Assembly: GCA_963664875.1 (NCBI GenBank)
Contig: OY761611.1
Location: 1,920,001-1,984,000, forward strand
Length of the DNA: 64,000 bases
Direction: 5' to 3'
From: Candidatus Kapaibacterium sp.
Lineage (GTDB): Bacteria; Bacteroidota; Ignavibacteria; Kapaibacteriales; UBA2268
The notes beneath the pieces were generated by a model. It did not search any database. It had not been told where the DNA came from and saw only the letters and a list, made by a program, of their open reading frames with translations. The translations under genes were made by a program, and so were the position numbers. Shown in pieces: positions 5,159 to 46,427 of this stretch (within the stretch, counting starts at the first letter, position 1; each line of letters starts with the position of its first letter).

Positions 5159-5164
5159 ATTTTT

Positions 5165-7708: not shown

Positions 7709-7710
7709 AA

Positions 7711-8082
7711 TTAGTTCCTTTTTATAAATTCAATAAAAGTGATAAAACCATTTCCATGTAATTGATTGAGAAAAATAGTTACCCGCTCTCGTGCAGGTGA
7801 TACTTTCTCAGCAAATTTATTGTCAATAAGGGCAATGATATCCCTTACAGAATTATTCCCATCAATAGCAAACCAAGTCGCAGAGCCAATCTCATCAAGA
7901 TTCGCCTTCATATATTTAGATCCACCTTTCGGAATCAAAATCTTTTCAAAAAAGCGATTATTAAATCTCGGCACCAGCACATCTACCAAGCCATCATTGT
8001 TCACCTCGAAACCATGCACATGCTTAGGAGTGAGGTCTAAGTAATTTACTTCCGGAGCGTTATTTTTAGTCTTGCCAAACAT
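7711..8082 (-). CDS. Stand-alone PqqD-like (RRE-fold) protein
   Basis: LDEIGSATWFAIDGNNSVRDI...FLNQLHGNGFI matches the PqqD-family helix pattern; stop lies 2 nt before the pepD start. Confidence 0.7.
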   Translation of the reverse strand: MFGKTKNNAPEVNYLDLTPKHVHGFEVNNDGLVDVLVPRFNNRFFEKILIPKGGSKYMKANLDEIGSATWFAIDGNNSVRDIIALIDNKFAEKVSPARERVTIFLNQLHGNGFITFIEFIKRN

Positions 8083-8188
8083 AAATACTAATCACATAGT
8101 TATACGTTCAAAAGCGGAATAAGTTGTTAATCGTATAGTATAAGTTAAAAAGAGTCTTTGATTTAACAAAGAAATATCGGCAGTCTGT

Positions 8189-8222
8189 AAAAAAAAAGAG
8201 GAACCCGGTTAAGAGTTCCCCT
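8189..8222 (-). terminator. Rho-independent terminator of the giant adhesin gene
   Basis: Minus strand AGGGGAACTC-TTAACC-GGGTTCCTCT followed by a T run. Confidence 0.8.
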
Positions 8223-8248
8223 TAAGATATTTATCGAAGATTTAGATA

Positions 8249-23200: not shown

Positions 23201-25186
23201 ACCACATTCATTTGCATCAGTAACTCTAACCACTACTCTTAAATCTACAGCACCAGTACCATCAGCATTAAAACTGTGTGTAGAAGTATTGTTATCTGTC
23301 AAACGAGTATAGCTTACACTTGTAATTGAAGGAGGAGTGTTATCTACACTAAATGTAGCAGCCGCAGATGCAGCACCAGGATTACCAGCAGGATCTGTAG
23401 GAGTTGCAATGATTTCATAAGTACCACTTGCTTCTCCTGCGATATCAAATGAATATGAATAAACATTTCCTGCAATTAAAGTAGCAGCTTCGTCAGCTGT
23501 TAAACTTGCAATATTATCCACACCACTACCACTAAGAGTAATGTGTGAATCATTCCAAGTACCACATCCATTTTCATCAGTTACAGTCACTGTAAAAGTA
23601 ACTGTTCCAGTTGGACTTGAACATGCACCTGAAGTCACTGCAACAACAGCAGATGGAGCAGAATTATCAATGATATATGCAAATGCACCATCATCGTCAT
23701 TTGCAACAGTAGTTTCATTACCTGCATCATCTGTAACTTTCCAAGCAGCATCACCAGAAACATCGCCATCAGCCACAGTCACAGTTAATGTATAATTTGG
23801 ATCTGCGTCACCTAGTGTTACATCGTCCGCAATTCCATCTTCCATAGTAAAGTGTATTTGATCACCGGCTGCATCATCATAACCGCCATCACTTACACCA
23901 CCAAGAGAAACTACTAAGTTATCTGTATTTTTGAAACAGTCCGCGTTTATAGCAGCTGTAGTTACTACAGGAGCTTTTGTATCAATATAGAATTGATAAG
24001 AAGCAACTGTTTCCTCACTTACAGAACTAAGAAGACCATCTGTATCATATAAAAAGTTTTCTGCACCAGTGATAGCAACATTGCCATCACCTTCAAAAGC
24101 AGAGCCATCGATATCAGTCATGTCACCAGCATCATCTGCAGCAACATCGATAACGATAGCACCTGAAAACTCTTCAGTATTATCCAATAAACTAAAGTAT
24201 TGTCTGTAAACATATTCAAAAGGCCAGTCATCCTGTTCATTTTGCAACTCAGGAATCCATTCGCCTTCACCTTTAGAAATAACAGTAGAATTAACATCAC
24301 CATTACCTTGGAAAGTAATATCAGGTGTGTCATTATAATCCATAATTTCGCTAAATTCTACATCTATATAATAAACACTAGCCAAGTTAGCTTGAACGTA
24401 AGCTTTGTTTACTACATTAGGAGTACCAGCATTCAAATTACTATGTACTTTAACTATAGTAGGCACAGCATCAGCACCGGCAGTAAATGTACCGGTAAGC
24501 CAATTTGAAACTGCACCTTGAGTTGTTACGTATGCAATTTGATATGCATATTGTTGCTCGTGAGTAAGTCCCATTATCACCCAACTATCAGCATTACCGA
24601 TATTTTGAGTAACTGTGGCACCAGTAGACAAATTAGTATAATTCAACAAAACATTAGCACCTGCAGGGCGATTCTCCCAAGCTAAGTGTACTACATTTTG
24701 TGAAACTTTTGGTTCTCCAGCAGCCAACGCTAGCCCCGGTAATGGAGCAATAAACGTAGCCGGGTTAGTTAGCCTTTGAGCGGTGCAATAAGCTGGCGTC
24801 GGAGCACCGCCTGTTTCATTATACTCAAAAGCGTAAACAGTATATTGGCTACCTGCGGTAAGACCAGTAACTGTAACAGTTGTACCTGTGCCAGTGTAAA
24901 CACACTGAGCAGTACCTGATGCAGCAGTATATGCTGTGGCTACACTACCTGTGTAGTCAGTACCATTTTCGGGATTATTTTGCGAATCCCAGGTATTGCC
25001 AGCCATAATAAATACAGCTACTTTCTCGCCATCACCACGCCGCCAGTTGAACGTAACGTCACTGCCGGAAGTAGTCATGGAGATTCTACCTGCCTGCCGC
25101 GTAGGGCTGGTCGCTGCCATAGCATCAGGCACAGCGAGCGCCACCATAAAGAGGCAGAGCAAAAGTAAGTTGAGCACTCGATTCAT
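8249..25186 (-). CDS. Giant (~5645 aa) T9SS-secreted adhesin: signal peptide, FN3-like modules, ~40 tandem Cys-bearing bacterial Ig-like repeats, FN3-like module, T9SS type A CTD
   Basis: ATG at 25186 with GAGGAG RBS (track starts at an upstream TTG, 25201). Recurrent (I/V)DNTAP linkers and DxAGN motifs; pre-CTD NVELRSF...LDWETIRETDNVGFEV; CTD IQPNPV...IYSLEG...AGTYTLKV...KRFVVVR. Confidence 0.9.
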   Translation of the reverse strand: MNRVLNLLLLCLFMVALAVPDAMAATSPTRQAGRISMTTSGSDVTFNWRRGDGEKVAVFIMAGNTWDSQNNPENGTDYTGSVATAYTAASGTAQCVYTGTGTTVTVTGLTAGSQYTVYAFEYNETGGAPTPAYCTAQRLTNPATFIAPLPGLALAAGEPKVSQNVVHLAWENRPAGANVLLNYTNLSTGATVTQNIGNADSWVIMGLTHEQQYAYQIAYVTTQGAVSNWLTGTFTAGADAVPTIVKVHSNLNAGTPNVVNKAYVQANLASVYYIDVEFSEIMDYNDTPDITFQGNGDVNSTVISKGEGEWIPELQNEQDDWPFEYVYRQYFSLLDNTEEFSGAIVIDVAADDAGDMTDIDGSAFEGDGNVAITGAENFLYDTDGLLSSVSEETVASYQFYIDTKAPVVTTAAINADCFKNTDNLVVSLGGVSDGGYDDAAGDQIHFTMEDGIADDVTLGDADPNYTLTVTVADGDVSGDAAWKVTDDAGNETTVANDDDGAFAYIIDNSAPSAVVAVTSGACSSPTGTVTFTVTVTDENGCGTWNDSHITLSGSGVDNIASLTADEAATLIAGNVYSYSFDIAGEASGTYEIIATPTDPAGNPGAASAAATFSVDNTPPSITSVSYTRLTDNNTSTHSFNADGTGAVDLRVVVRVTDANECGDFGTDLGNNATPATGAAKLEFTKKVGTGAIAGFVGAIDAATDARTYITNVNEFSPGVWDITYEFDLEGATGGDINFSVTATDKHNNASAETDVANSIINVDILDPTFTSQPALVGAPADDCYVGGNTINVTMDFDATSVVEAGSYGNVQEDVFTVNKTAGPDVPQEINFVLADIASAATVTQTMSADLTGLTAESYTGDYTYTVTGVDRAGNSVTSADLTFSIDNTAPTATAVWKDDAATDGSANTITCASVGQTVYLHVTLTETGCGTMDGAIDNANGGLTVTANNFTDNLAYTDAAPANLNPSYTFVYETTIDAADNAGDNVLTYTVTDSKGNASTGNTATIYIDKTAPSVIVNTLSQSCFKTGGTLSFNVTALDPAPVCGTFDASNLQVWLEESEPANTVYDVGTDIMLSVALSSGNTYTYSRVIDGTESGNVYALAIDDAGNQTGFNSPSLFTIDNTAPTAAVTIVDACLNNTQTLTANVLVTEAGDCGLSGYTATVTGAGKGTADPVLAVGPTDNLNGTYSLQYTVDLSQETAYAEGTYTFSFNTNDAAGNSMVAPETATFTVDNTPQTISAITFTDACVDGSLEFEFTISDVNCNPLEVNEYNTPVITDPSGNDPVLVGGAPADNDGSYTWTYTLNVADLNEAGNPYQIAVNYTDDFDNASDEVTGTFNIDRSLPSIANLEATPTCAVDATGTEDVTITFDMTDAASCALDASNITTATVTGGVLSTPSIDGSTVTYTVNLFEVADGDYTFTVEVTDDAGNASGASNVGFTVDNSAPELSLLSDNATCVKDGDVINITFTVTDAEECSALTAANFTISAAGVTVDAADIDVTGANSPYTVSADLTLPDALPGADVADGDYDITVAFADNAGNPGVAADGHSLTIPNAFTVDNTKPTLGTPVLVAEEPTCIKPGTEVDIQVSLTDNNANCNTFDAARVTVDKGALNGAVAVAAALTEGNIIITYTAHADDANGLATLPSITYEDEAGNVSIAVAATELFSIDKVEPAVNAASLSITDDQILGTCFGDSRDIEFSFSVVEEGCGTFVSPTNIEVTIIDAGAHNYSATYVGRTGTGTVADPYVFTYSYTFVGEETNGAATISVDVMDDAGNHPVAVVLNDGFSIDNAVPTITLSAKGTCETAGTVDFSVVVTDASTCGTLNQDDITITLEDASATPVAIPVAFLNEAPAGTFNYRATVASNHATGYASITATIKDDAQNTSSDVDAQYFQIDNTKPTVTSITVLDQGDNVVDCITTGNYKLQIGVTDLGCGTLTGALTELQTADPGKIFVFLPVFNANLTFSQIVSNVGDDYVFEYTFTIPQGDEGGKHVRVLATDSKGNLSNLYDPAGFEFTIDPLNHTIATTTTTNAVGTCLGTGKVITATLNVNVDENSCGGVENVEAELEFSDNSTVWMTPAAGNPAPVGGLYPDGTYEFTYTVDSEDPNGALLSVTGYLNHGLNAVVADADEALNLVLDTDAPTVTPNAAFALGCLGNGADAVFTDIVVDDNAVCSDIDETNIEVELYTAEGGTFRTLTSATDVAIASTYTYDDQNNHFDFTYVIQGDEPQGEAIGVRLNVTDNAGNSVEDQVVDADAFSVDYEGPVVSNIAVSETCVKYTEVEGTPTTTLDVTFDVEEAGCGTFDASNITIAAVNGGTTLTLASTDNPATIVVAGNANDGYTVTGTFTIPDVEGEYTITLTVDDDQDNVATMAVEDPATGNAAGATITAVPTFRVDNSGPVFAEVNAPAKIALYTYDGQDYTLVTDACVTDGNYYLGVEPSDAGCDGIVGTSVVYTPNQAVAGQFYVSASTFANTVDTPIEVGGMYYIPLAIASTDDGTEEITLSLFDGLLNESEELTYSIDVDNVGPVVSDIDIAEADQCVAYTEDGGQNPTTEVDVTFHVEEDGCGAFDAANVSATATNGTTTLNGSITSLTGNVNDGYDVTATFTILSNTTDGLYTVSLVIDDDKDNYATMDGAEPAATGTAVGATITAEDKFYVDNAGPVVSNIQLDKSCVKYTDDGDEEEPTPTTVVTATFHVEEAGCGTFNAGNIDADARTSWNGPFSIAGVVTDVDGETPQTGYDVTVEFTVPQAAINGPYQVELTIDDDNGNAADFDGTEDPATGFIDGIIYSEATFTVDNDAPSITAMDFADGIADACLTTGAVISGTVTVNQTGCSPVNAVTVYLDLPGGVETATVGTPSGNVYPFTYTIQTVDGSGDVDVYATATDGLGTTSTEFDFEDVDFSLDQLKPTSVAIASGQDGGCYNHTQTITLTVSADIDAAGCLDQDDITIEFTGLGGLNAQLSANQPTGPVDTKYTWEYTIDIPENTTEPVVNYDGLYTIAATVNDGNGAVSAGSISFTVDNTPAALSLSSITDACLNQTGTLAFSFLVTEEVTGTDCYDGLNNLSFTDPSTANNVQTNVTDNEDGTWTVEATLLLSDVAQGDKQVTVNYTDDANNASTQLAVNFHVSTALPVVSAITVSDNCVNSLLPYSFTVADNSTCGDGINAAEYWIELTGNPAAGDADGTMTISEGTFSGNIDISGLANGQYDLIVVYTDDAGNSDEEIATFTVDKTAPAFAAVNENLDQIALYTEAGGVYSEVTDNCIQGGSYYLGVAPSDAGCDIVASDVVETTPVSGQFFMTSTTFANSIVTDDGVIEGAGDYAGMYFIPLTVANDEEGSKSVVLSIYDGAMNESEDLTYSITVDNDAPAIALGTVTACSNTEIAYSFTIDDTDCDENGVNNATVSIWTTAIPAVQVGGNISVASSSSNETVNTYTGTLDVSAYASGTYTLKVDYIDDSDNESDAASTTFNVDTDGPVVSTIALDDNCIKDGQSVTMTFNVTDNDICSALAAGNISAEAVNGSTTITGTDVTYNDQTGDASVTFAFPASPQTAHDQGAYSIALIIADPAGNTAEMAEEDVTGTVNGQDDTVIDVTPTFTLDNAGPVIAFTDMTPDEDDCYKAGQTVSIEFSVEDGSCGGAGATPVVTITLPKEAPNTVAATVTGTYPNYTATYLATANDGTGTATVSVTAADGLGNANTNASLATFSIDNSVPVVDNFTLISTPTCYKADQTVTFAVDYENLGCATQDIALWDGENNGFEVDIYNGNNLINGNIGEPNEVNGKLQFTYTVDAADVTGSYTVEFNIVDSKGMEGYLVQSSAFTIDNSKPTLTLVSPTNPPTCVEPGDIVTFQVNASDVGCGTFDEDDITVTVTNGTPANISAVTPVNGDGYNYEFTYTVAGTVETPVDVAPIINITASDDLGNTLLAPVTHAMTVDVNPLDIAIDLPQTTCVSQITDGTFVFDVTATNLGCDTDIEDLTVTVQATGETAATTLTGSEGTYTYTIPTGSAYTGEATITVTAVDGFANTVTETSTFMIDNTAPAIAGDVTITNNATSGQCLGTGNTITTDFTIADADCADLGEVTITYDFSDGTDATYSSVGDFTINDGVVSHTHTIVEVNGTGTCTVTVNAVDTKGNAMTPVNGDVVNNIDQTGPTLTLVNTPPTCVEPGDVVTFQVNASDVGCGVFNEDDITVTVTDGTSANISTVSAVDGQTNVYEFTYTVAGTVATPVDVAPIINITASDDLGNTLLAPVTHAMTVDVNPLDIAIDLPQTTCVSQITDGTFVFDVTATNLGCDTDIEDLTVTVQATGETVATTLTGSEGTYTYTLPVGPTYTGEATITVTAVDGFGNTITETAPFMIDNTAPAIAGDVTITNNATSGQCLGTGNTITTDFTIADAGCANLGEVTITYDFSDGTDATYSSVGDFTINDGVVSHTHTIVEANGTGTCTVTVNAVDTKGNAMTPVNGDVVNSIDQTGPTLTLVNTPPTCVEPGDIVTFQVNASDVGCGTFNEDDITVTVTNGTPANISAVTPVTGQTTVYEFTYTVAADDLEEEILGDVAPIINITASDDLGNTLLAPVTHAMTVDLNPLDIAIDLLGVTCVSKELDGNLVFDVTATNLGCDQVVSNLTVTVTPFGGNATTVTESEGVYTYTIPQGSTYTGEATITVTAVDGFNNTITETATFMIDNTAPVLSAYSDDAECVGALLLTINATQIHFSVNAEDLGCGTFAHSDINVTMTSSSGLPLVGNLTTDGSTGTVFNYVYTVHPQDPTGDVNITFNLVDSKGNIAVTYAPTDNANDGSEFKIDNTAPMLSNLEVSKQNAVEGDNLSITFDLADAGCAVTNQPVVTLTFADNSNTTATYASGSGNGTYTYSYTVPTSPVEGGVNVKVNSSDALGNTDVLDPANFEFVIISNTPADVTSIVVNDMMVEDADAGNNFTVAVTYSQPMDVTQNAPVVTFDPTVGGTFTNGSGAWSNGNQTYTMTYTIVDAGICVDDVDVSVTGGQNTVGIAANGGTEANLFDVYMCSAANARADIVFAGNEANGISSLTNGDITTSTNGTRVLKLTVRDDITTDTDTKPTNVTALTINAAGSNQAAFDTHIHAAALFNAAGTKLCDAVITAGALTFSNLSVSCADNSTYDMYLRLTVKNPLPAGADGKRLVFTLANTNVTVDANSTPLTTFTNTSSTAASNNVIQVVVTQLAFVDQPTNATVGVAEPVEDNVTVKAQDANGNIDTDAAFTVNMSITNTTAISNGGSANMLSGVATFSGLTYQYAASGVALTATPASPFVANAISNTFNITPPAPAAAAALNLVSKTSSTILLQWNSNGANSLLLAIQGSEMPSAVPAPQTAYTNTNGAFSIGAPTYTSNCDEITGSLIGGGTANARVVYFGSDQQINVTGLQKLVTYTFKLYTFNSDATFTASTVVYAADGPTATITTSKYKEAYANVELRSFDVTSADAQAFLDWETIRETDNVGFEVHRAEMTEAGLEPFEMITSYEDNSALAGLNESEFGKKYKLTDDDAVLAIGATYVYRLVSVASDGYKQVQAERSVLINGAASMSVSEIQPNPVVTDLKFDLDMVESRKVTIQIYSLEGTLVAQPILDKEYGMGLHKVSIDLDRSMIPAGTYTLKVISGDNEAVSKRFVVVR
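11130..13680 (-). repeat. Intragenic tandem duplication, 969-bp (323-aa, three-domain) unit, about 2.6 copies
   Basis: TACGCATGTTGGAGG recurs at 11723, 12692 and 13661 (spacing 969); near-identical DNA between copies. Confidence 0.92.
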
Positions 25187-25290
25187 AGAGCGTCTCCTCA
25201 ATAATTAAAAAAAACAGAATTTAGTATCAATTGCCCATAGTCATGGCACGCAAATTGTGGAAAACTATCGCTTAATTACGCGCCAAAGCA

Positions 25291-25330
25291 TACAAAACAA
25301 AGAATAATTAGTCAGCATAGCTAATTATTC
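25291..25330 (-). terminator. Terminator-like hairpin in the upstream leader of the giant adhesin gene
   Basis: Perfect 10-bp inverted repeat GAATAATTAG (25302-25311)/CTAATTATTC (25321-25330), followed on the minus strand by TTTGTTTTGT; stem is AT-rich. Confidence 0.4.
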
Positions 25331-25543
25331 AATCAAAATGTAAACAATTTTCTTAAATCTACAAACACATTTTTTTGTTAAATCTGCATTAAGTACATTC
25401 ACAGTTTAGTCAAGTAACTGAATACAAACGAGTTAAAGCTGATAAGAAATTTTGCAAATTACGTGTTTTCCCGTATGTATTTTTTCAGTTTTTACAGATA
25501 TAATATCCGATTGTTGGCGAATATTGTCAAATAGAAAATAATT

Positions 25544-25560
25544 ATCAAATATAGTGCCTA
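25544..25560 (-). promoter_or_regulatory. Possible sigma-54 (-24/-12) promoter for the giant adhesin
   Basis: Minus strand TAGGCACTATATTTGAT vs consensus TGGCAC-N5-TTGC; correct GG-N10-G spacing, two mismatches. Confidence 0.3.
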
Positions 25561-25817
25561 TATTGCCGGCGATAGCAATAAAATGTTAAATAGATTAAGA
25601 TAATTCATAGATATATATTATGTATATCACGTATATTTTTTGTAAGTATTTTTATTACTACAGAGGAATATTTATGTGGAAAACTATGGGAGGATTGGGG
25701 GAAATAAAAATACTATAGGCTATGTACAACAACAAGGGACTGTCTCATAAGTAAAACAATCTATATTAACTTGACGATTACTCAATACATTATGTGATCT
25801 GAGTTAAGCAAAATGTA

Positions 25818-26013
25818 GAGGCTGTCTCTAAGTCATAATTTGCAAAATATTCTTGATGTATGTAAGTTTTACCGACAGCTGAAGCAGTCGGTTGCACTTG
25901 TGTAACTCATTGCAACCGCATGCTTTAGCTTGCGGTAGAAGATAATATAACGTTTGTTTTTCCTCTACTTTTACAAAAGAGTATGACAAAACTCAGACTG
26001 CTGAGACAGCCTC
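25818..26013. mobile_element. MITE/REPIN-like element: 11-bp terminal inverted repeats enclosing an inverted REP doublet
   Basis: GAGGCTGTCTC (25818-25828)...GAGACAGCCTC (26003-26013); inside, ACCGACAGCTGAAGCAGTCGGT-22 nt-ACCGCATGCTTTAGCTTGCGGT (25871-25936), similar to 54417-54482. Confidence 0.65.
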
Positions 26014-26022
26014 AAGCTGGTC

Positions 26023-26104
26023 GCCCTTACAGGGCTCTATATTTCAATGACTTATCTTTCCCGGGGCGTTGCCCCGGGCTGATATATTTGAGGCTTTCAG
26101 CCTC
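26023..26104. repeat. REP-like hairpin triplet (GCCCTTACAGGGC / CCCGGGGCGTTGCCCCGGG / GAGGCTTTCAGCCTC)
   Basis: Three GC-rich palindromes in AT-rich intergenic DNA; layout resembles REP clusters associated with IS200/IS605-like tyrosine transposases. Confidence 0.65.
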
Positions 26105-26108
26105 CTGT

Positions 26109-26261
26109 GAAAAATATAAAAAAACCGTGGGGAAATCTATAATACAAGCGTGGGGTGTGAAACCTATACAACCGTGGGGGGTGTGAAACCTATACAACCG
26201 TGAGGTTAACCCCACGGCTGTAAAAAAATATAAAAAAACCGCGGGGTTTTCCCCACGGTTG
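26109..26261. repeat. ACCGTGGGG-family REP hairpins with reiterated left arms
   Basis: ACCGTGGGG-like arm repeated at roughly 22-26 nt spacing (TACAA(G/C)CGTGGGG..GTGAAACCTA), then full hairpins ACCGTGAGGTTAACCCCACGG and AACCGCGGGGTTTTCCCCACGGTT; AAAAATATAAAAAAACCG duplicated; same hairpin at 51797. Confidence 0.75.
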
Positions 26262-26286
26262 GATAAATAATTCAATTTACAATTAC

Positions 26287-27357
26287 TTAGTCTTTTTTCG
26301 TAGTAACCTTGATCACATTAGAAAAGCCTGTGATGCCGGATTTGAGCATAGCCCGCACGCGGTAGTAGTACGTTTTTCCTGCTTCCAGATTGTCAATATC
26401 CCAATCATTTACTGGCATGATAGTGATGTTCGAGTAGTTAGGGAGCAGCTGAGAAAAGTTTTCGTCCGTAGCTACATCGAGGATATAATTTTTTGCATCT
26501 TCGACCTTCTCCCACTGAGCAAGGAAGTGATCGCCGCTAACATCTTTAGCTTCGAGAGCCTTAGGAGCAGGCGGCAGTGCAGTGTAAGTGCGAACAAAGC
26601 GAGAATCTTTCTTTTTAGGCAAAGCGTAAACAGTGTTTTCACCGGAGCCGTTAGCTTCTATCGCAGCAATAGTATAAGTCTTACCTGGTTTTAAACCTGA
26701 TAAGCGAATGCTTGCTTGCGTTTTACCGGTATTTTTTTCGATACATGATGTTTTAGTATCCTTAACGAGAGATTGTCCGTAAGTGGCATTAGGGATTGCC
26801 TCGTACTTGTTTTTCGGTAGTTTTATATCATTTCCCTCGGCAACAAAGATAAAAGTAGCATCGCCATTGCCTCGCATATAAGAAAGCGTAATAGATCCGT
26901 CGGAATTCTCGCTGATAGCAAGATTACGAGGAGTAATGCTTGGAGATTTAGGTAAAGTCATGACATCAAAAGACTTTAGCAAAAGCGAATAGTCCGGTGC
27001 TTTCTCATTATTAAAGCTATAGACATCTAATTTATATTTAGTGCCCGGAACTAAGCCTTTTATATCGAGCTTATTATTTTTGACTTTCCCTGTAAAGATC
27101 GGGTAATTTTTTTTGCCGATAATATTGTTTTCAGCCTTAGATATGTCCGCCACAGGCTTATAGACAGTGCCGTTAGTAGGCGGGAAATTAGATATTTTAT
27201 CTTCCCTAAGCACAAGCAGGAAAGCAGACTGCCCGGCAGACTTGATAGTAAACGAAAGGGACTCCTGCTCAGCATCGACATTAGTAACTTCATCGATGGC
27301 AAAAAGCGAGATAGAAAGGGCGATGAAGAGCGTCAAAACAGCGAAAATGTTTTTCAT
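26287..27357 (-). CDS. Secreted fibronectin type III domain protein (two FN3-like modules shared with the giant adhesin plus a canonical FN3), no T9SS CTD
   Basis: Signal peptide from MKNIFAV (ATG 27357); GLVPGTKYKLDVYSFN, RGNGD...GLKPGKTYTIAAIEAN, C-terminal AQWEKV..AKNYILDVATDENF...NLEAGKTYYYRVRA. Confidence 0.85.
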   Translation of the reverse strand: MKNIFAVLTLFIALSISLFAIDEVTNVDAEQESLSFTIKSAGQSAFLLVLREDKISNFPPTNGTVYKPVADISKAENNIIGKKNYPIFTGKVKNNKLDIKGLVPGTKYKLDVYSFNNEKAPDYSLLLKSFDVMTLPKSPSITPRNLAISENSDGSITLSYMRGNGDATFIFVAEGNDIKLPKNKYEAIPNATYGQSLVKDTKTSCIEKNTGKTQASIRLSGLKPGKTYTIAAIEANGSGENTVYALPKKKDSRFVRTYTALPPAPKALEAKDVSGDHFLAQWEKVEDAKNYILDVATDENFSQLLPNYSNITIMPVNDWDIDNLEAGKTYYYRVRAMLKSGITGFSNVIKVTTKKD

Positions 27358-27414
27358 AAGCGTATCATTTGAGTTAAACATATAAACAAATATACTAAAA
27401 GTAGGCGATAATAT

Positions 27415-27453
27415 AAAAAAAAACGCGGCCTCTTATAGAAAGAGACCACGTTT
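27415..27453 (-). terminator. Rho-independent terminator after the fibre gene
   Basis: Minus strand ACGTGGTCTCTT-TCTAT-AAGAGGCCGCGT plus T run. Confidence 0.8.
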
Positions 27454-27489
27454 AATATATTCAATCTATTGTGAAATAGATTATGATTC

Positions 27490-30400
27490 TTATTGGATAA
27501 TTCTCCAAGCACCATTGATGTACAAGCATTTAACTGTTTGTTGAGTTGCAACACCAGTACCTAATACTGTAATTGCACCAGCAGAACCACCAATTGCTGC
27601 ATTGTTGTAGATATAAAGGATTTTACCATCTTGACCTGCAGGGAAATTAGCTGAGATAAATGCAGCACCGTCACCACCATTATAAGTAAGAACAGTTTGA
27701 TTAGCAGCAGCTAAAGTTGCAATTGAGTTAAATGAACCAGTTGACAATTGTATGTGACCATCCATAATGCGCAAAGCTTGACCTGTAGCATGAGTTGAAG
27801 TAATTTGCAACGCATCTCCTTGATCAGCTTGAATAATAGCTCCAATTCCAGTACCAGTGTTAGTACCATCAGTTGCATCAACATTTAATGCAGTACCTGC
27901 ACCTGTTACATATGCATTAACTGCAGTACCAGTAGTTGCAGTAGCATTTACCGCCATACCAGTAGATGCAGAAGCACTGATTGCTTGTCCAGCAGCAGCA
28001 AGGTTGGTTGCAGCAATTGCTTGGGTACCTGCACCAGTAGAAGTTGCTACGATTGAAGGATTCGCAAGAGAATTAATTGTTACAGTGTTATTGAACGTAG
28101 AAGTACTACCTACAGCCAAAGTACCAGTAGTTGCAACGTTACCAGTAGTAGCAGCAACAGTGAACTGAGTAGTAGATAAAGAATTACCAGTAATAGCACC
28201 AGAAGCAGTAACAGCACCAGTATTTGCATCTAGAACTACAGAACCAACACCGTCAGTTACAGTAAGATCTGAATCAAAAGTAGTTGCACCGTTAACACCA
28301 CCAGGTAAAGCAACAGCACCAGTGAATGAAGAAGTACCAGCAACAGTGAAGTCAGTAACAGCAGCAGCATCAGAAACTACTACACCACCAACGATACCGC
28401 CAGTAAGAGTAGAAGCACCTGTTACCTCTAGAGTACCACCAACTGTAGTATTACCAGTTACACCTAATGTGCTACCTAAAGTAGTTGCTCCAGTTACACC
28501 CAATGTATTGTTTACTTGAGTTGCACCAGCTACAGTCAATGCATCACCTAAAGTAGTTGCACCTGTTACACCTAATGTACTACCTAAAGTAGCAGCACCT
28601 GTTGCACCAAATGTATTATTTACTTGAGTTGCACCAGCTACAGTCAAAGTGTTGCCTAAAGTAGTTGCACCTGTTACACCCAATGTGTTACCTAAGGTAG
28701 TTGCACCTGTTACACCTAATGTACCAGAGAAAGTACCATTCGCAGCATTTACATCAGCCATAGTAGCTGTACCAGTTACACCCAAAGTGTTATTGATTTG
28801 AGTTGCACCAGCTACAGTCAAAGTGTTACCTAAAGTAGTAGCACCGGTTACACCTAATGTATTGTTGATTTGAGTTGCACCATTAAGAGTAGTTGCACCA
28901 GCTACTGACAAGTTAGCAGCAAAGCTACCATTACCAGTTACGCCTAATGTACCACCGATAGTAGTGTTACCATCAACATTTAAAGTAGCGTTTAATTCTG
29001 TGTGACCGTCAACATTAACTGTACCATCTACGTCGAAATCTGAAGTAGCACCGATTAAGTTAACATCACCATCGTAATTAGTAGTACCAGTTACAGTGAT
29101 TACGTCAGCAGCGTCGTTACCAAGAGCAACGTTAGCGTTAGCAGCTAAATCACCAGTTAAAGTAGTTGCACCAGTTACAGCTAAAGTGTTACCTAAAGTA
29201 GTTGCACCAGTTACGCCTAAAGTACCACCGAAAGAACCGTTACCAGAGAATGTACCATCTACTGCACCAACGTTACCAGTGAATGTACCATTTACAGCAC
29301 CAAGGTTACCAGTAAGAGTTGCATTTACTGCACCAACGTTACCGGAGAAGTTACCATCTACTGCACCAACGTTACCAGTGAATGTACCATTTACAGCACC
29401 AAGGTTACCAGTAAGAGTTGCATTTACTGCTGAGATATCACCAGTTGCAGCAATATTACCAGTTACATTTAAGCCTGCACCAGCTGTTACTAAACCAGTA
29501 AAATTACCAGTAGTAGCATTCAATGTACCACCTACGAAATTACCGTTAAATTGGTTCGCAGTTACATGACCGTTAGAAGCATCCAAAAGAATTTGATTTG
29601 GTGCAGTACCAACTGTCAAGTTACCGGATACAGTAAGAGCACCGATAGTTGCATCATTTACAGTCAAATCAGCAGTACCATCAAGAGCACCAGTGATTTG
29701 AGCAGTAAGAGCTTGAAGCAAACCTGTCAATGTAGCATTAGTAGCATTAACATCTGTAGCATTAACATCTGTAGCATTAACAGTTGTAATGTTACCAGTT
29801 GTAGAGTTTACTGTAGTGATATTACCAGTAGTAGAGTTCAAAGTAGTGATAGTACCAGTGTTAGCTTGGATATCATCAACTACTAAGTTACCGTTAGGCA
29901 TATTTATTTGAGCGTTAGCGCCAAGCATGTTGATTTGTGCGTTAGCGCCATTCATAATAATCTGAGCATTTGGATTAGTTGCTGCATTGAAAGTCAAGTT
30001 TTTAGTAGTAATGTTAACATCACCATCTACTGTTAAATCTTGACCAACAGTCATATCTTGAGAGATTTGACCATTTTGAGCAGTCATCTGACCATTGATT
30101 ACAGTATTACCATTAACAGTTGCGTTACCGTTAAGAGTTGTGATACCATTTACAGTCAAAGCAGTAAGAGTAGAAGTACCATTAAAGTTACCTAAGAAAT
30201 TAGGAGCAGTTACATCTACAGTGAAAGTAGGAGCTACGTCAGTGTAAACTGTAGCAGCATCTACAATTGCTCTGTCAATAATATCATTATCAACTACATC
30301 ACCTGCTAATTGATCAACATCTAAATCGCCAGTAATGTTAGCAGCAGTACCAGATACGTTACCAGTTACATTACCAGTTAAGTTACCCCAGAACATAGGA

Positions 30401-32748
30401 GCTGTTACATCTACAGTAAAAGTAGGAGCTACATCTGTATAAACTGTAGCAGCATCTACAATTGCTCTGTCAATAATATCATTATCAACTACATCACCAA
30501 CCAATTGGTCAACATCTAAGTCACCAGTTAAGTTAGTTGCACTAGTAGCTGTTGCAGCATTACCAGTTAAGTCACCAATAAACATAGGAGCTGTTACATT
30601 AACTGTAAAAGTAGGAGCTACGTCAGTGTAAACTGTAGCAGCATCTACAATCGCTCTGTCAATAATATCATTATCAACTACATCACCAACTAATTGGTCA
30701 ACATCTAAGTCACCAGTTAATGCGATAGCTGCATCAGCAGTACCAGTCAAGTCACCAACAAAATGAGGAGCTGTTACATCATTTACAAATGTAGGAGCAA
30801 CTGCATCATAAAGAGCAACGTTAGCTGTCAAACGAGCATCAGCTAAAGTACCAGTAGTGATGTTTGTAGCATTGATATCAGTGATAGCAGCACCGTTACC
30901 TGCGAAAGTAGCAGCATTAACAGCACCTGTTACATTTGCATCACCACCAACAGTGATATCATTTGCAATTGTGAAAGAACCAGTTGAAATTTGACCAGCA
31001 ACATTTACGTTACCATCGAAATCTACATCTTTATCAAATGTAAGGTTATCGCCGGCAGCAGGAGCAGTGATAGTGATTGCTTCAGCGCCTTCGCCTACAG
31101 TGATAGTGTTAAGGATTTCTAACATGTGACCGTGAGCTGTAGAGTTCCAGTAGATATCGCCTTTAGTTACTAAAGCGATTTTACCAGGAACATTTGAAGT
31201 ATTTTCGATAACTACAGCACCAGTTGGATTTGGATTAGCCAAAGTAACCCAACCGTCAACGTTTTCGTTGTTAGCAGTGAAGTGACCTGCAACTGCAAGA
31301 CCATTGTCAGAAGTAGTAGTTACTTCCATACCTTTGTGAAGAACGTTAGCAGTAGCACCAACAACATTGTTGTCAACTTTAACGCCGGCAGTCATGTAAC
31401 CATTATCTTCACTGATATTAGTCATGAATTTAGCGCCATAAGAAGTGCCTTCCAAAGTAGTAAGGTTAGTAGTTACTAACAAAGCACCTTGAGAAGATTC
31501 GCCGTCAGTTGTACGGTCGATGTGAGCAGTTGCAACGTTATCGCCACCACCCATAACTTTCAATGCTTCACCGTTTGTATCAGTTTGAGGAACTTTTACA
31601 TAGATACCGCCGCCTTCTACATCAGTTTTAGTGATGTCGATAGCAGTAACGTTTTCAGTTGGACCATTGTGAGTAATAGGAAGAGTGAAGTTAGCATCTT
31701 TCCACATAGGAGCTTTTGCAATTGGATCCCAAGTCATTACTTGACCTTGAACAGGAACTGCATCATAAGAGAATTCCCATTTGCCATCTTTCCAGAAGAT
31801 AACCTGACCATTTACATCAGCACCGTCAACCATGTCAAGTGCAGTTGGAGCCATCCAAGCAGCATTGCCATTAGCGTCAACCATTAATTTATATCCTTCC
31901 ATCGCACCGGCAGTACTCAAGTACATAGGAGTGATAGAACCAGGAGCTACTAAATCAAGAACAGCACCCCATGCAGCAGTGCCATTAGCACCAACATACA
32001 ATACTGTACCTTCAGCAGCACCAGTAGTATTCAAGTTTTCTAAAGCTACTGCACCAAGACCAATTTTGTCAGCAGTTACTGCGCGAGGAGCAATAATTGG
32101 ATCTGGGTAAGTACCAGTCAAATCACCAGAAGCAGGACCAGATGGAGTAGTAGATACGTTAGGAGCTAACATATTCTGAGTTATACCACCATTAGGGATG
32201 TTATTTAAAACAGCTTCAGGTTTGATAGTTGGGTTAGGGTAAGTACCATCGAGGTCACCACCAGCAGCACCCATTGGAATAGCCATTACGTTAGGATCTA
32301 ACATAGCTTGAGTAACACCACCATCAACAACACCAAGAGCTACAGTTGCTGTGTCAGCCATAGAAGCTGATTTTGCCATACCTGCATAAGGTACCAAAGA
32401 CATAGCAGTTCTTGCGTATGGATCGCCACCGCCAACTGTTACTTGCAAGAAGTATTGTTTGTTGAAAGGTAAGTTAATTGGAGTAGTCTGACCCAAGTTA
32501 ACGTTGAAGTAACCTTCAGTTACTTTAACATTTTGAGTTTCAGTCCAAATTGCAGTACCACCTGCTTCGCTTTCGAAGATTTCGAAAGTCATTGAAACAT
32601 TTTGGTCTAAAGCTTTTTTGTCTTCATTTACCAATGTACCTTGGTAGTTAATTTGGTCTGGCAAATCAGCCGGTGCAGCTTGCACTCTACCAAATGGTGC
32701 TAAAACGAAGGCAACGATAAGTAAACCGAGAAGAAGAAGTCTCTTCAT
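27490..32748 (-). CDS. Secreted phage-tail-fibre-like / trimeric beta-fibre protein (1752 aa), no T9SS CTD or autotransporter barrel
   Basis: Sec signal; N-terminal module PDQINYQGTL...TFEIF...GGTAIWTETQ...GYFNVNLG...FLQVTV...SLVPYA typical of FCB fibre proteins; GGDLDGTYPNP-like motif x2; 12-aa TLGVTGATTLGN and 10-aa NGTFTGNVGA repeats; AGGAG RBS. Confidence 0.8.
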   Translation of the reverse strand: MKRLLLLGLLIVAFVLAPFGRVQAAPADLPDQINYQGTLVNEDKKALDQNVSMTFEIFESEAGGTAIWTETQNVKVTEGYFNVNLGQTTPINLPFNKQYFLQVTVGGGDPYARTAMSLVPYAGMAKSASMADTATVALGVVDGGVTQAMLDPNVMAIPMGAAGGDLDGTYPNPTIKPEAVLNNIPNGGITQNMLAPNVSTTPSGPASGDLTGTYPDPIIAPRAVTADKIGLGAVALENLNTTGAAEGTVLYVGANGTAAWGAVLDLVAPGSITPMYLSTAGAMEGYKLMVDANGNAAWMAPTALDMVDGADVNGQVIFWKDGKWEFSYDAVPVQGQVMTWDPIAKAPMWKDANFTLPITHNGPTENVTAIDITKTDVEGGGIYVKVPQTDTNGEALKVMGGGDNVATAHIDRTTDGESSQGALLVTTNLTTLEGTSYGAKFMTNISEDNGYMTAGVKVDNNVVGATANVLHKGMEVTTTSDNGLAVAGHFTANNENVDGWVTLANPNPTGAVVIENTSNVPGKIALVTKGDIYWNSTAHGHMLEILNTITVGEGAEAITITAPAAGDNLTFDKDVDFDGNVNVAGQISTGSFTIANDITVGGDANVTGAVNAATFAGNGAAITDINATNITTGTLADARLTANVALYDAVAPTFVNDVTAPHFVGDLTGTADAAIALTGDLDVDQLVGDVVDNDIIDRAIVDAATVYTDVAPTFTVNVTAPMFIGDLTGNAATATSATNLTGDLDVDQLVGDVVDNDIIDRAIVDAATVYTDVAPTFTVDVTAPMFWGNLTGNVTGNVSGTAANITGDLDVDQLAGDVVDNDIIDRAIVDAATVYTDVAPTFTVDVTAPNFLGNFNGTSTLTALTVNGITTLNGNATVNGNTVINGQMTAQNGQISQDMTVGQDLTVDGDVNITTKNLTFNAATNPNAQIIMNGANAQINMLGANAQINMPNGNLVVDDIQANTGTITTLNSTTGNITTVNSTTGNITTVNATDVNATDVNATNATLTGLLQALTAQITGALDGTADLTVNDATIGALTVSGNLTVGTAPNQILLDASNGHVTANQFNGNFVGGTLNATTGNFTGLVTAGAGLNVTGNIAATGDISAVNATLTGNLGAVNGTFTGNVGAVDGNFSGNVGAVNATLTGNLGAVNGTFTGNVGAVDGTFSGNGSFGGTLGVTGATTLGNTLAVTGATTLTGDLAANANVALGNDAADVITVTGTTNYDGDVNLIGATSDFDVDGTVNVDGHTELNATLNVDGNTTIGGTLGVTGNGSFAANLSVAGATTLNGATQINNTLGVTGATTLGNTLTVAGATQINNTLGVTGTATMADVNAANGTFSGTLGVTGATTLGNTLGVTGATTLGNTLTVAGATQVNNTFGATGAATLGSTLGVTGATTLGDALTVAGATQVNNTLGVTGATTLGSTLGVTGNTTVGGTLEVTGASTLTGGIVGGVVVSDAAAVTDFTVAGTSSFTGAVALPGGVNGATTFDSDLTVTDGVGSVVLDANTGAVTASGAITGNSLSTTQFTVAATTGNVATTGTLAVGSTSTFNNTVTINSLANPSIVATSTGAGTQAIAATNLAAAGQAISASASTGMAVNATATTGTAVNAYVTGAGTALNVDATDGTNTGTGIGAIIQADQGDALQITSTHATGQALRIMDGHIQLSTGSFNSIATLAAANQTVLTYNGGDGAAFISANFPAGQDGKILYIYNNAAIGGSAGAITVLGTGVATQQTVKCLYINGAWRIIQ
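28420..29430 (-). repeat. Intragenic 36-bp (12-aa TLxVTGATxLGN) and 30-bp (10-aa) tandem repeats of the fibre shaft
   Basis: Recurrent ACCTAAAGTAGTTGCACC(T/A)GTTACACC; 90-bp duplication at about 29250-29430. Confidence 0.85.
30200..30720 (-). repeat. Three copies of an acidic 63-65-aa unit TGDLDVDQLVGDVVDNDIIDRAIVDAATVYTDVAPTFTV
   Basis: ATCATTATCAACTACATCACC at 30283, 30478 and 30667 (spacing 195 and 189). Confidence 0.9.
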
Positions 32749-32817
32749 TACTTTGCACTCCTAAACGATGTTATACAAAAAAATCTCATTTTATTATCTA
32801 ATTTCTTATTCGAATGA

Positions 32818-33402
32818 TTATTTAGAAACAATCATAACTGTACGCACAGACTGAGTATCAAAAGTAGAAGCGCCAACAGGTCTAACTACTACTTCACACA
32901 AGTAAGAACCGCTTGCAACATCAGCGCCACTGTTATCAGTAGCATCCCATGTTTGAGAAACCATACCGGATGTTTGTCCTACGTTGAATGTTTTGATAGT
33001 TTTGCCACTCATGTCGTAGATATTGATAGTTACATCACCATAACCCGGCATTTCGTATTCGATAGTTGTGTTTTGTGCAAACGGGTTTGGAAAGTTTTTC
33101 AAACCGTCGTTTGTAATAACAACATTATCATCTACTGATGTTCCAGGTTCGCCCGGAGACCAAAAACCTTGGTACAATGTCCAGAGTTTCCCTTCAACAA
33201 CTGTACCTGCATCACGCTTGCCGATTGCAGTCTGTCCCATAACGCCGGAAAGTGTTTCCCCATTGTTATTTGAAACAGCCACCATGCCACCGGAACCGAT
33301 CACAGATCTTTCGAGAGTAATCTCTTCCTGAGCAACAGCAGAATCCGCTATAAACGGAAGTGCTATCCCACAGACCAAGATATACTTCATAATTTTTTTC
33401 AT
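32818..33402 (-). CDS. Small T9SS type A/FlgD-like CTD protein (signal peptide + ~60-aa module + CTD)
   Basis: SVIGSGG...LSGVMGQTAIG...LYQGFW module, then NFPNPFAQNTTIEY...IYDMSGKTIK...WDATDNSGADVASGSY; AGGAG RBS. Confidence 0.85.
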   Translation of the reverse strand: MKKIMKYILVCGIALPFIADSAVAQEEITLERSVIGSGGMVAVSNNNGETLSGVMGQTAIGKRDAGTVVEGKLWTLYQGFWSPGEPGTSVDDNVVITNDGLKNFPNPFAQNTTIEYEMPGYGDVTINIYDMSGKTIKTFNVGQTSGMVSQTWDATDNSGADVASGSYLCEVVVRPVGASTFDTQSVRTVMIVSK

Positions 33403-33513
33403 GTGAACACTCCTATATACTGACTATGTATATTATTGTAAATTGCTTTTTTATAACGACTTATTTATATTTCAAAGGTTTCTGTAAACCTGCTTGTATT
33501 GCTTAAGTTACAG

Positions 33514-33530
33514 TACAATAATTATGCCAA
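33514..33530 (-). promoter_or_regulatory. Putative sigma-54 (-24/-12) promoter of the small CTD protein-fibre operon
   Basis: Minus strand TTGGCATAATTATTGTA = TGGCA(T)-N5-TTG(T), about 110 nt upstream of the ATG at 33402. Confidence 0.6.
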
Positions 33531-33988
33531 AGTATTTGACGTATATTATACTACTATCCGAATCTATAATTGACAATCGGAATCGAAAACGAAATTACGA
33601 TATTTCGCCTTAAATAACAAAAAAGAATTTATTTCATCCATAAGATTTATGATAATAATTTCTCCAATTATTACATCCTGCACTCTAAATCTATATGCCT
33701 AAATGATTTATAAGTATTTACCATCTCTTAACATAATAAAATATCCTAAGCTATTTATCTATTCGACAAAAGATAAACAGCCTCAAAATCGCTTTTTTCG
33801 TCTATTTCTGATTTTTTTGAGCGGTTGCATGCCACATTACTATTTTCGGACATGTATTTGCCTTATGTGGTTTATAATTTTTTACTTCATGCTGCAAATT
33901 GAAAATAACTGAATCGCAAATGAATTCCAAAAACTTTTTTATTTTTTTGTATTTTTGTATCAAATTTCTTTACCAAACCGGAATTATA

Positions 33989-35386
33989 ATGAAACTTCAC
34001 GAGCTTATCGCACATTGCATCACCATCGATGATGCTGTTTCTCTTTCTCTCAAACCTGCTGACAGTACAATCTCTGAGTACCTCAAGCAAAACAAATCCA
34101 TTGGCAGTAAAGAACGAAAGTTTGTGATGGAACTTACTTTTTTCGGAATCAGAAATCAGATTCTTATAAATCATTTATCTCAATGTATAAATTATAATTT
34201 GCATACCCAAACAAAATTTTTTGTCGTTGCAATTTTATTGCAATCTGTTTACGATGATTCAGGTTCAGATTTATCGTTCGACAAGCTATATTATGCAATA
34301 GATAAATCATCGGAAAATAATATTATTCAGTCTTTTCAAAAATACTTCTCTAAAGATGCACTGACGACTGAATTGCTAAATAATTGGAAACTTGCAATAA
34401 TCAATAGAGTTAGAGAGCTTAATGATAAAATCGCGAACATGTGTAGCGACTCTCTTTGCTTAAGATATTCTTTTACAAAACCTTTTTACGATTTGCTAAA
34501 CACTCGATATAGTTACGAAGAAATTACTCAAATGTTCATAGCTTTATCTAAGCCTGCTGATATTTCTATCAGAGTAAACACGGTAAACACTAATATAGAT
34601 AAACTCTTTGATAGTCTTTCTACTAACTATGCAGATGGCATTATTGCAAAAAGTAAACTAATACCAAATTCTTTAAATGTTTCGGGCAGAGCTAATTTGT
34701 TGCAATCCAAAGAGTTCCAAAACGGAAGATTTGATTTTCAGGACGAAGGTAGCCAAATCATTTCTCTAATTCTTGATCCACAGGAAGGAGAAACAATTTT
34801 AGATGCATGTGCAGGAGCCGGAGGCAAAACCGTTCATATTGCTAACCTTATGAACAACAAGGGCACAATCGTAGCTACAGACACAGGACAAAAAAGGTTG
34901 AATGAAATACTCCCCAGAGCAAAAAAGGCAGGTATTAAAATCATTGAAACAGAGCTTATCAGATTAGGTTCCCGTACGCAAACCAAATACAATCAAAAAA
35001 AATACGATCGCATACTTATAGATGCTCCGTGTTCGGGCTCGGGAACTATCAGACGTGCTCCTTTTTTGAAATACAATTTCTCTAACGACAAGCTAAATGA
35101 GCTTACAAGGCGCCAGGCAGGCATTCTTCAGCATTATTCTAAATACCTCAAGCCTGGTGGTATTTTGGTATATGCTACTTGCTCAGTTTTCCCTCAGGAA
35201 AACTCTGATATTGCTCAAGCTTTTCTTGCTGCTAATGAAAACTTTGAACCTTGCCCATTACAGGGAACTTTAGACAAACATAATATCGCTGTCAGTTGCA
35301 ACACAAACTCTTCTGATTTGACTATCGTGCCCCATACATATAATACTGACGGCTTCTATGTTGCCAAATTCAGGAAAAAATTATGA
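33989..35386 (+). CDS. RsmB/NOL1/NOP2 family RNA (cytosine-C5)-methyltransferase
   Basis: FQDEGSQ, LDACAGAGGKT, LIDAPCSGSGTIRR, LVYATCS, TDGFYVAK; likely start ATG 33989 (track extends to 33899). Confidence 0.92.
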   Translation: MKLHELIAHCITIDDAVSLSLKPADSTISEYLKQNKSIGSKERKFVMELTFFGIRNQILINHLSQCINYNLHTQTKFFVVAILLQSVYDDSGSDLSFDKLYYAIDKSSENNIIQSFQKYFSKDALTTELLNNWKLAIINRVRELNDKIANMCSDSLCLRYSFTKPFYDLLNTRYSYEEITQMFIALSKPADISIRVNTVNTNIDKLFDSLSTNYADGIIAKSKLIPNSLNVSGRANLLQSKEFQNGRFDFQDEGSQIISLILDPQEGETILDACAGAGGKTVHIANLMNNKGTIVATDTGQKRLNEILPRAKKAGIKIIETELIRLGSRTQTKYNQKKYDRILIDAPCSGSGTIRRAPFLKYNFSNDKLNELTRRQAGILQHYSKYLKPGGILVYATCSVFPQENSDIAQAFLAANENFEPCPLQGTLDKHNIAVSCNTNSSDLTIVPHTYNTDGFYVAKFRKKL

Positions 35387-45361: not shown

Positions 45362-45373
45362 GGTGTTTGTCCT

Positions 45374-46417: not shown

Positions 46418-46427
46418 GATAAGGTCC

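Follow-up and report, generated by a model that had tools for sequence, protein, structure and literature searches.

The 64,000-nucleotide (nt) stretch of contig OY761611.1 of Candidatus Kapaibacterium sp. analysed here (the window; positions are counted from its first letter) carries two adjacent genes, one for a 194-residue protein ending in a type IX secretion system (T9SS) C-terminal domain (CTD), and the other for a 1752-residue fibre related to the mosaic adhesive trimer (MAT) fibres described in 2024 as prey-recognition fibres of Bdellovibrio (Caulton et al., 2024, PMC10769870; this paper and the others cited by PMC number are drawn on in part). The evidence supports a conserved bicistronic unit with a predicted sigma-54-type promoter before it and one terminator after it. 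The reading that we favour, tentatively and at somewhat less than even probability, is that the small protein is a lineage-specific docking or anchor adaptor, delivered by the T9SS, for the MAT-like N-terminal domain of the fibre (the N-domain), both being made from a sigma-54-controlled operon; the contact between the two proteins is one that we infer.

Organization and conservation of the two-gene unit

The small-protein gene is an open reading frame (ORF) of 194 residues at 32818–33402 and the fibre gene an ORF of 1752 residues at 27490–32748; both, like all elements of the unit located below, lie on the minus strand. The 69 nt spacer between them (32749–32817) contains an AGGAG ribosome-binding site at 32758–32762, 9 nt 5′ of the fibre ATG, and a consensus scan found no terminator-like site in it. 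The ORFs and the terminator scan thus confirm an earlier reading of this DNA made from the letters alone (the sequence-only reading), which had placed the small gene 69 nt upstream of the fibre with no evident terminator between them. Directly 3′ of the fibre stop codon lies a terminator-like hairpin of 14 pairs followed by a T-run (27421–27453). An Rfam scan of positions 25000–34200 gave no match, and a scan for sigma-70-type promoters was uninformative (25 sites compared with 27.3 expected). Each of the two N-terminal modules, that of the small protein (the N-module) and that of the fibre, is present once in the window, as judged by a motif scan and by phmmer on ORFs of at least 60 residues.

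The contigs of a one-genome-per-species collection were scanned with an alignment of the small N-module as the query. 63 stretches matched and 22 loci were confirmed, mostly in metagenome-assembled genomes of Kapaibacterium and Ignavibacteria-like bacteria (Kapaibacterium is placed in the Fibrobacteres–Chlorobi–Bacteroidetes (FCB) group, under Bacteroidota), which together with the window gives 23 loci and about 394 kb of sequence. In all 21 loci that could be tested, a gene with the fibre N-domain directly follows the small gene (phmmer E values from 1.9e-21 to 1.5e-81); the remaining locus, L005, lies on a contig that stops 139 nt beyond the small gene. The spacer between the two genes measures 49–76 nt, with a median of 71 nt over 22 pairs, and the linkage is kept across 31–84% identity of the queried N-terminal part. 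Seen from the other gene, the fibre N-domain has 23 copies in the window and loci, of which 22 stand right behind a small gene and one belongs to a second fibre in tandem (in L008). The pair is divergent to an adjoining rsmB-like gene in 20 of the 23 loci, while L019 and L022 keep the pair in other surroundings, making three different flanking contexts in all. That the pair recurs in FCB genomes without functional annotation, which the sequence-only reading had put forward, is borne out by the 21 of 21 loci and by the generic names that the small proteins carry in the databases (see below).

Four of the loci (L007, L009, L013 and L014) come from bins labelled Desulfobulbaceae or Hyphomicrobiales, with the same rsmB–small gene–fibre synteny as in the Kapaibacterium-like bins, so that these labels look doubtful. 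In L008 (positions 3182–8543), a single small gene has two MAT-like fibre genes behind it in tandem, which encode 930 and 558 residues; the N-domains of these fibres are about 88% identical, as counted in the alignment, and their C-termini differ.

The small N-module is under selective constraint. Over the 18 loci in which all three genes are available, the mean p-distance is 0.46 for the small module, 0.49 for the fibre N-domain and 0.60 for rsmB, and the small N-module (0.52) and the fibre N-domain (0.50) rank highest in mean identity within the two proteins.

A sigma-54-type promoter element precedes the unit

Sigma-54 promoters have a −24/−12 consensus, TGGCAC-N5-TTGC, with GG at −24 and GC at −12. 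The window copy of such an element, TGGCATAATTATTGT at 33529–33515 (TGGCAT-N5-TTGT), begins 127 nt 5′ of the ATG of the small gene. The motif TGGCA[CT]-N5-TTG[CT] is found on the coding strand 74–161 nt 5′ of the small-gene start codon in 20 of the 23 loci, and these 20 are among only 25 matches in the 788,500 nt scanned on both strands; the strict motif is absent from L019, L020 and L022. Within the window alone, two matches compared with 0.7 expected are not notable, and it is the conserved position rather than the window count that supports a promoter element. We predict from this motif that the operon is under a sigma-54-type promoter, which, being conserved, would offer an added regulatory handle.

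The second match in the window, TGGCACGCAAATTGT at 25244–25258 on the plus strand, lies in the gap beside the start of the giant gene described in the last section, on the opposite strand to that gene; it has no obvious gene downstream and may be due to chance. A fragment of a sigma-54 activator is present at the edge of the window (3–851), and nothing ties this fragment to the operon.

The small protein is a predicted minimal T9SS cargo

The small protein begins with a Sec signal peptide of 24 residues (33331–33402; MKK…SAVA/QEE, with the slash marking the predicted cleavage site), which, like that of the fibre, was read by eye. The pattern is kept in the 23 homologues, although the signal region is the least conserved part of the protein in sequence (mean pairwise identity 0.26), compared with 0.52 for the N-module of about 55 residues (residues 30–84 approximately; 33151–33315), 0.30 for the variable linker (residues 85–100; 33103–33150) and 0.48 for the CTD (residues 101–194; 32821–33102). 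The N-module, the best conserved part, has positions that are invariant or at least 90% conserved, both across the 23 loci and across 89 database clusters, over which its consensus reads r.ViGsGGMv..n..sg..GQ.aI..lyQGFWvp. The module has no counterpart among the Pfam, NCBIfam and PHROG families, and a search of the ESM Atlas with it gave a best score of 0.82 and no lead. The description of the 194-residue protein as nothing more than a signal peptide, a short module and a CTD, proposed by the sequence-only reading, is therefore confirmed, with a conserved module of about 55 residues.

For most of the small-protein homologues, as for many fibres, the predicted cleavage site is followed by a glutamine (33328–33330 in the window). 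This fits the ‘Q-rule’ described for substrates of the signal peptidase I of Bacteroidetes (PMC5837995).

The CTD matches TIGR04183 over residues 104–171 at 34.6 bits, for a cut-off of 23, and PF13860 at 42.1 bits, whereas PF18962 stops just short of its cut-off (26.5 compared with 27 bits). In the model calculated by AlphaFold2 from the 23-row alignment, the predicted local distance difference test (pLDDT) score is about 90 for the CTD, below 50 for the linker and 38–54 for the N-module alone. Residues 101–194 adopt an immunoglobulin (Ig)-like β-sandwich fold in this model, for which the best fold matches in the PDB are the CTD of PorU (6za2, E = 4.8e-5), the CTD of PorZ (5m11), FlgD and the T9SS-bound CTD of NucA (8glk_D). 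These family and fold matches support the assignment of the small protein as a T9SS type A cargo, which would be exported by this system and retained at the surface. Two further CTD proteins are encoded within the 64 kb window, an indirect sign that the T9SS is in use.

The architecture of the family is rigid. A profile search covering proteins of 168–2000 residues retrieved 89 clusters at 90% identity, all of 174–223 residues and nearly all with CTD Pfam families, and none of them shows the small module fused or differently built. A single-sequence search over 341–2000 residues likewise found no fused or longer form among its 89 candidates, and the range of 106–167 residues was covered with the whole single sequence. 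The source names of the family are only generic (‘T9SS C-terminal target domain-containing’, ‘FlgD immunoglobulin-like domain containing’), and the source bins are labelled Kapaibacteriota, Ignavibacteria or FCB-group.

The fibre belongs to the wider MAT superfamily

Behind a Sec signal peptide of 24 residues (32677–32748; RVQA/AP) that is devoid of a lipobox cysteine, the fibre opens with a domain of the type INYQG…WTETQ…GYFNVNLG…VPYA. Taken alone, this N-domain (residues 27–136; 32341–32670) matches the NCBIfam model NF053851 (Bdello_MAT_N, ‘mosaic adhesive trimer family chimeric fiber protein’) with an E value of 6.5e-10 and 39 bits, over profile positions 14–77 of 162, and all 22 of the locus N-domains match this model at E ≤ 1. 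When the full-length fibre is compared with NCBIfam, no NF053851 match is listed at E ≤ 0.1; nor does the whole protein match any Pfam or NCBIfam family above its cut-off, Bactofilin coming closest (25.5 compared with 27.9 bits). The homology to NF053851 places the fibre in a known kind, the MAT fibres. With a score under the curated cut-off, which only three of 97 relatives pass, it is filed in the wider superfamily and not in the Bdellovibrio subfamily: by homology, the fibre joins the MAT superfamily as a new member that falls outside this curated subfamily.

An exhaustive HMMER search with the N-domain profile retrieved 44,900 representative clusters (50% identity) at E ≤ 1e-3, 19,977 at E ≤ 1e-10 and 63 at E ≤ 1e-30, the domain being nearly always located at residues ~20–135. 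The NCBIfam scan covered 97 of the 150 best relatives and the Pfam scan (E ≤ 1e-6) 55 of them, P0111–P0163 being left out. NF053851 is found at E ≤ 1e-3 in 47 of the 97, and not one of the 97 matches a T9SS CTD model. The Pfam scan found Peptidase_S74 in five of the 55 relatives, YadA_head in three, DUF5907 in three and Collagen in two, so that three trimer-forming modules (S74, YadA_head and collagen) occur among the relatives of the fibre. The three relatives that exceed the NF053851 cut-off (P0040, P0049 and P0091) each contain the MAT-type N-domain two or three times.

By sequence, the whole fibre has no match in the PDB at E ≤ 1, and the N-domain profile gives chance-level matches only (best E = 0.068). 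With tblastn, neither 50,697 phage records nor 72,556 plasmids yielded a match to the N-domain. The idea of a cellular protein resembling a tail fibre, put forward by the sequence-only reading, is borne out: the fibre is a relative of the Bdellovibrio MAT fibres and has no recognizable T9SS signal.

The body of the fibre is repetitive. About three tandem repeats of ~64 residues (residues ~676–857; 30177–30722) were delimited by Tandem Repeats Finder, with a period of 189–195 nt and 86–88% matches, and repeats of short period follow at 28453–29430, with units of 11 residues at 29238–29430 and of 12 residues at 28453–28882. Residues 1101–1350 match PHROG families of unknown function (E = 2.7e-11 and 4.9e-10). 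The shaft part of the C-terminal model has a pLDDT below 50 as a monomer; the shaft is probably trimeric.

In the model, the fibre ends in a conserved tip-like domain of no known type, which the sequence-only reading did not contain. The last ~85 residues (~1668–1752; 27493–27747) form a compact β domain with a pLDDT of 70–90, and the last 170 residues have a mean identity of 0.23, compared with 0.50 for the N-domain, as expected for an independently folding variable tip. The motif G[QK]hhYI.N...W is present in this domain and, if two variants recognized by eye are included, in 11 of the 14 complete fibres from the loci, as well as in 19 of the 150 top HMMER relatives; it is missing from the second fibre of L008. 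The tip domain has no fold match in the PDB at E ≤ 1e-3 and no T9SS CTD is among its matches, the best of which are StcE residues 132–251 (E = 3.9e-3) and the phage fibre chaperone–substrate complex 6o38 (E = 1.2e-2, TM score 0.35). Comparison with viral predicted structures and with the ESM Atlas gave only weak, unnamed viral look-alikes. The families TIGR04183, TIGR04131, PF18962 and PF13585 were found neither in the whole protein at E ≤ 0.1 nor, in NCBIfam, in the last 200 residues at E ≤ 0.01; Peptidase_S74 (PF13884) gave no match at E ≤ 0.1, and barrel families of Pfam and NCBIfam are likewise missing among the matches of the entire protein (E ≤ 0.1) and of its last 200 residues (E ≤ 0.01). 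The earlier statement that the fibre ends with neither a CTD, a barrel nor an S74 chaperone therefore stands.

How the small protein may relate to the fibre

According to the favoured reading, the small protein would cross the outer membrane via the T9SS, whereupon its CTD would be cleaved; it would stay at the surface like other type A cargo, probably tied to a glycolipid, and its mature stub of about 75 residues would form a docking site for the N-domain of the second gene product, itself predicted to have a Sec signal and a MAT-type N-domain, followed by a repetitive shaft, probably a trimer, and by a variable tip of compact fold. For the Bdellovibrio fibres, the MAT N-domain has been proposed to bind a surface element that is not identified, and the way in which the fibres are held and the routes by which they exit are stated as open questions (PMC10769870); the passages on MATs in later reviews name no anchor. 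The stub may be a lineage-specific version of this ‘surface element’. In Porphyromonas gingivalis, T9SS cargo loses its CTD by cleavage and becomes attached to anionic lipopolysaccharide (LPS; PMC8545088), and LPS-dependent anchoring has been reported in Cytophaga (PMC12860637).

Several observations point to the N-domain as the site of contact. The small module and the N-domain are both conserved, compared with the variable last 170 residues of the fibre, so that the N-domain fits as the contact better than the tip does. The arrangement in L008, where one small gene precedes two fibres with near-identical N-domains and differing C-termini, also favours an N-domain contact. In addition, the low confidence with which the N-module is modelled alone, despite its being better conserved than the rest of the small protein, would fit a module that becomes ordered on its partner; this is a weak argument given the shallow 23-row alignment. 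As for export, the T9SS has been described as confined to the FCB group (PMC12398890, PMC5445135) and the MAT fibres of Bdellovibrio reach the surface outside this group; joint export through the T9SS is thus not a requirement of the family, and anchoring or docking is the more economical proposal.

The idea that the small module was split off from the fibre N-domain, or arose as a copy of it, was rejected at the sensitivity of hhalign, which gave a probability of 0.2%. The proposal of the sequence-only reading that the small module complements the N-domain finds no support in sequence: hhalign detects no similarity between them, and the model of the MAT N-domain has no match in the small protein. 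In a mirror-tree analysis of the 18 loci with all three genes (the second fibre of L008 excluded), the distances of the small N-module correlate with those of the fibre N-domain with r = 0.907, and those of the small CTD do so with the same r = 0.907; the partial correlations given rsmB are 0.67 for the N-module and 0.66 for the CTD. A 1:1 complex prediction of the fibre N-domain with residues 26–100 of the small protein scored 0.08, compared with a mark of 0.32, in a calculation run without controls and with an uncertain fold for the partner, and so counts on neither side of the question of binding.

A number of points weigh against a docking adaptor. The equal correlations of the N-module and the CTD mean that there is no specific signal of co-evolution. 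Most of the 22 loci share synteny, so that part of the conserved adjacency reflects shared ancestry. The N-domain of the window stays under the curated cut-off of NF053851 (39 compared with 60 bits). Module co-occurrence, which the sequence-only reading had proposed to measure, holds from the side of the small gene (21 of 21 loci adjacent); from that of the fibre, the N-domain family is larger by orders of magnitude, counting 44,900 clusters at 50% identity compared with 89 at 90% identity for the small family. The N-domain is therefore not generally in need of a small partner; most MAT-like fibres must be held by something else, and the partner may serve some other lineage-specific need. The link between the two proteins is so far a genomic one, from a small uncultured lineage. 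A docking model also leaves the passage of the CTD-less fibre across the outer membrane unexplained, as it is for the MATs of Bdellovibrio. In some Bacteroidota, type A cargo is released and not anchored.

The main sceptical alternative, which we consider rather unlikely, is that the two genes are merely co-regulated: the small protein would be a surface or signalling peptide of the T9SS that acts on its own, for example as a ligand, modulator or matrix component, and is made from the same sigma-54 promoter as the fibre. A precedent for a small CTD protein whose role is not enzymatic is PorA, a ligand of the PorXY system (PMC12152298), and both the presumed nature of the binding between the small protein and the fibre and the lack of specificity of the mirror-tree test speak for it. 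It does not readily account for an order and spacing that are invariant in 21 of 21 loci and across three genomic contexts, for the rigid architecture of the small protein in 89 clusters, or for the placement of the N-domain over ~394 kb, where 22 ORFs directly follow a small gene and the only other one is the second of two fibres in tandem. The tight coupling of the genes would also suit a trans-acting chaperone or cap for the folding or trimerization of a fibre devoid of S74, acting on its shaft or tip, by analogy with the tail-fibre assembly proteins of phages and with the intramolecular chaperone S74, which is present in five of 55 relatives. The tip model does weakly resemble the ‘chaperone–substrate complex’ 6o38, but this match is not significant, no PDB match reaching E ≤ 1e-3; moreover, the export label would send the small protein outside the cell, its conserved module comprises only ~55 residues, the tip and shaft are variable (0.23) where the small module is conserved (0.52), and the single small gene of L008 serves two fibres with different C-termini. 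We regard such an assembly role as improbable.

We may also wonder whether the small protein carries the fibre out, as the sequence-only reading supposed: it would bind the N-domain in the periplasm, and its CTD would take the CTD-less fibre through the T9SS translocon and perhaps anchor it as well. This would supply the missing export route of a fibre that has a Sec signal and no CTD, barrel or S74, and among whose relatives none of the 97 scanned matches a CTD model. The strict operon linkage fits it as well as it fits docking, and the T9SS exports very large cargo, a CTD protein of 5650 residues being encoded next to the operon. The surface exposure of homologous MAT fibres in Bdellovibrio, outside the FCB group (PMC10769870), argues on the contrary for a T9SS-independent route within the family; no precedent for hitch-hiking on the T9SS was found in the portions of the literature consulted, and the contact of the small protein with the N-domain is presumed here too. 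We judge this mode of export, too, to be improbable. The same low probability attaches to its most general form, in which the ~75-residue stub would be a general ‘handle’ that binds the MAT N-domain in the periplasm, drags a trimeric fibre of more than 5000 residues through the T9SS pore and stays as its covalent glycolipid anchor; if true, it would be the first hitch-hiker substrate of the T9SS and the first identified anchor of a MAT fibre.

Comparison with known systems and significance

Like the MAT fibres of Bdellovibrio bacteriovorus (PMC10769870), the window fibre combines a Sec signal, a homologous β-rich N-domain, a long repetitive body and a variable compact C-terminal tip of a non-S74 subtype, and it has no recognizable signal for export across, or anchoring in, the outer membrane. 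Its relatives mix S74, YadA-head and collagen modules, as the MATs do (PMC10769870). It differs in its host, a Kapaibacterium-like member of the FCB group that is not a known predator, in its length (1752 residues compared with ~1000 for the Bdellovibrio MATs) and in being preceded by a T9SS-CTD partner gene and a sigma-54-type promoter, unlike the MATs as described in the consulted part of that paper. The resemblance to phage tail fibres and tailspikes lies in the repetitive body with its PHROG matches, in the weak viral look-alikes of the tip and in the S74 domains of some relatives; unlike phage S74 fibres, the window fibre is without S74 and its gene lies next to rsmB in chromosomal surroundings that are conserved.

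The small protein, for its part, shares with P. gingivalis cargo of the gingipain type, which is attached by PorU/PorZ, a C-terminal TIGR04183 domain with an Ig-like sandwich fold and, with T9SS type A cargo, a Sec signal whose cleavage would expose a glutamine. Unlike gingipain-type cargo, its passenger has only ~75 residues and no enzymatic or adhesin domain, and its presumed job would be to hold another protein. CTD cleavage and glycolipid attachment are known for the P. gingivalis cargo and would apply to the lineage of the small protein by analogy. A precedent for a CTD protein that joins a surface filament exported by a different route is Mfa5 of the P. gingivalis type V (Mfa1) fimbriae, a T9SS-CTD protein in a filament whose other subunits use the lipoprotein pathway (PMC7835359). 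However, Mfa5 is a large vWA tip adhesin of a type V pilus; the present pair combines a tiny CTD protein with a MAT-like filament, and neither protein has a lipoprotein signal.

In a literature coverage that stopped short of the supplementary tables of PMC10769870, we found no account of a MAT-like fibre that is consistently paired with a minimal T9SS cargo, or of a sigma-54-type promoter before such a pair. A MAT-type N-domain heads tens of thousands of protein clusters, and a strictly linked minimal T9SS cargo is a concrete candidate anchor that turns the open question of how MAT fibres are held into a simple binding experiment. If the partner does dock the fibre, then T9SS cargo can act as adaptors for proteins devoid of a CTD, which would widen T9SS-dependent surface display and provide a compact tag-and-dock pair for surface engineering. 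If the two do not bind, the pair would be a co-regulated surface module of an ordinary kind.

Other genes of the window

Just downstream of the fibre operon, a gene at 8249–25201 (minus strand) encodes a giant, highly repetitive protein of 5650 residues that ends in a T9SS type A CTD (TIGR04183, 29 bits). Conservation of this protein and of the FN3 protein encoded at 26287–27381 is limited to the closest loci (L001, L003 and L004), which sets both proteins apart from the two-gene unit. A further T9SS cargo is the 1045-residue protein encoded at 59713–62850 (plus strand), with arylsulfotransferase and Lcl C-terminal domains and a T9SS CTD (PF18962, 38.2 bits).

The gene at 36122–37807 (plus strand) encodes a UvrC-like protein (GIY-YIG domain and UVR motif) with an N-terminal exonuclease domain of the RNase_T type, and is conserved near the pair in nine loci. 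At 2442–4892 (minus strand), an 816-residue fusion joins a patatin-like phospholipase to a POTRA domain and an Omp85 barrel, and at 44327–47468 (minus strand) three tandem paralogues of ~345 residues give BNR/Asp-box or sortilin-like matches. Finally, a gene at 63037–63675 (plus strand), at the edge of the window, encodes a DarT single-stranded DNA thymidine ADP-ribosyltransferase (PF14487, E = 1.7e-54); it is likely to belong to a DarTG toxin–antitoxin or defence locus, the partner gene of which would run past the end of the window.

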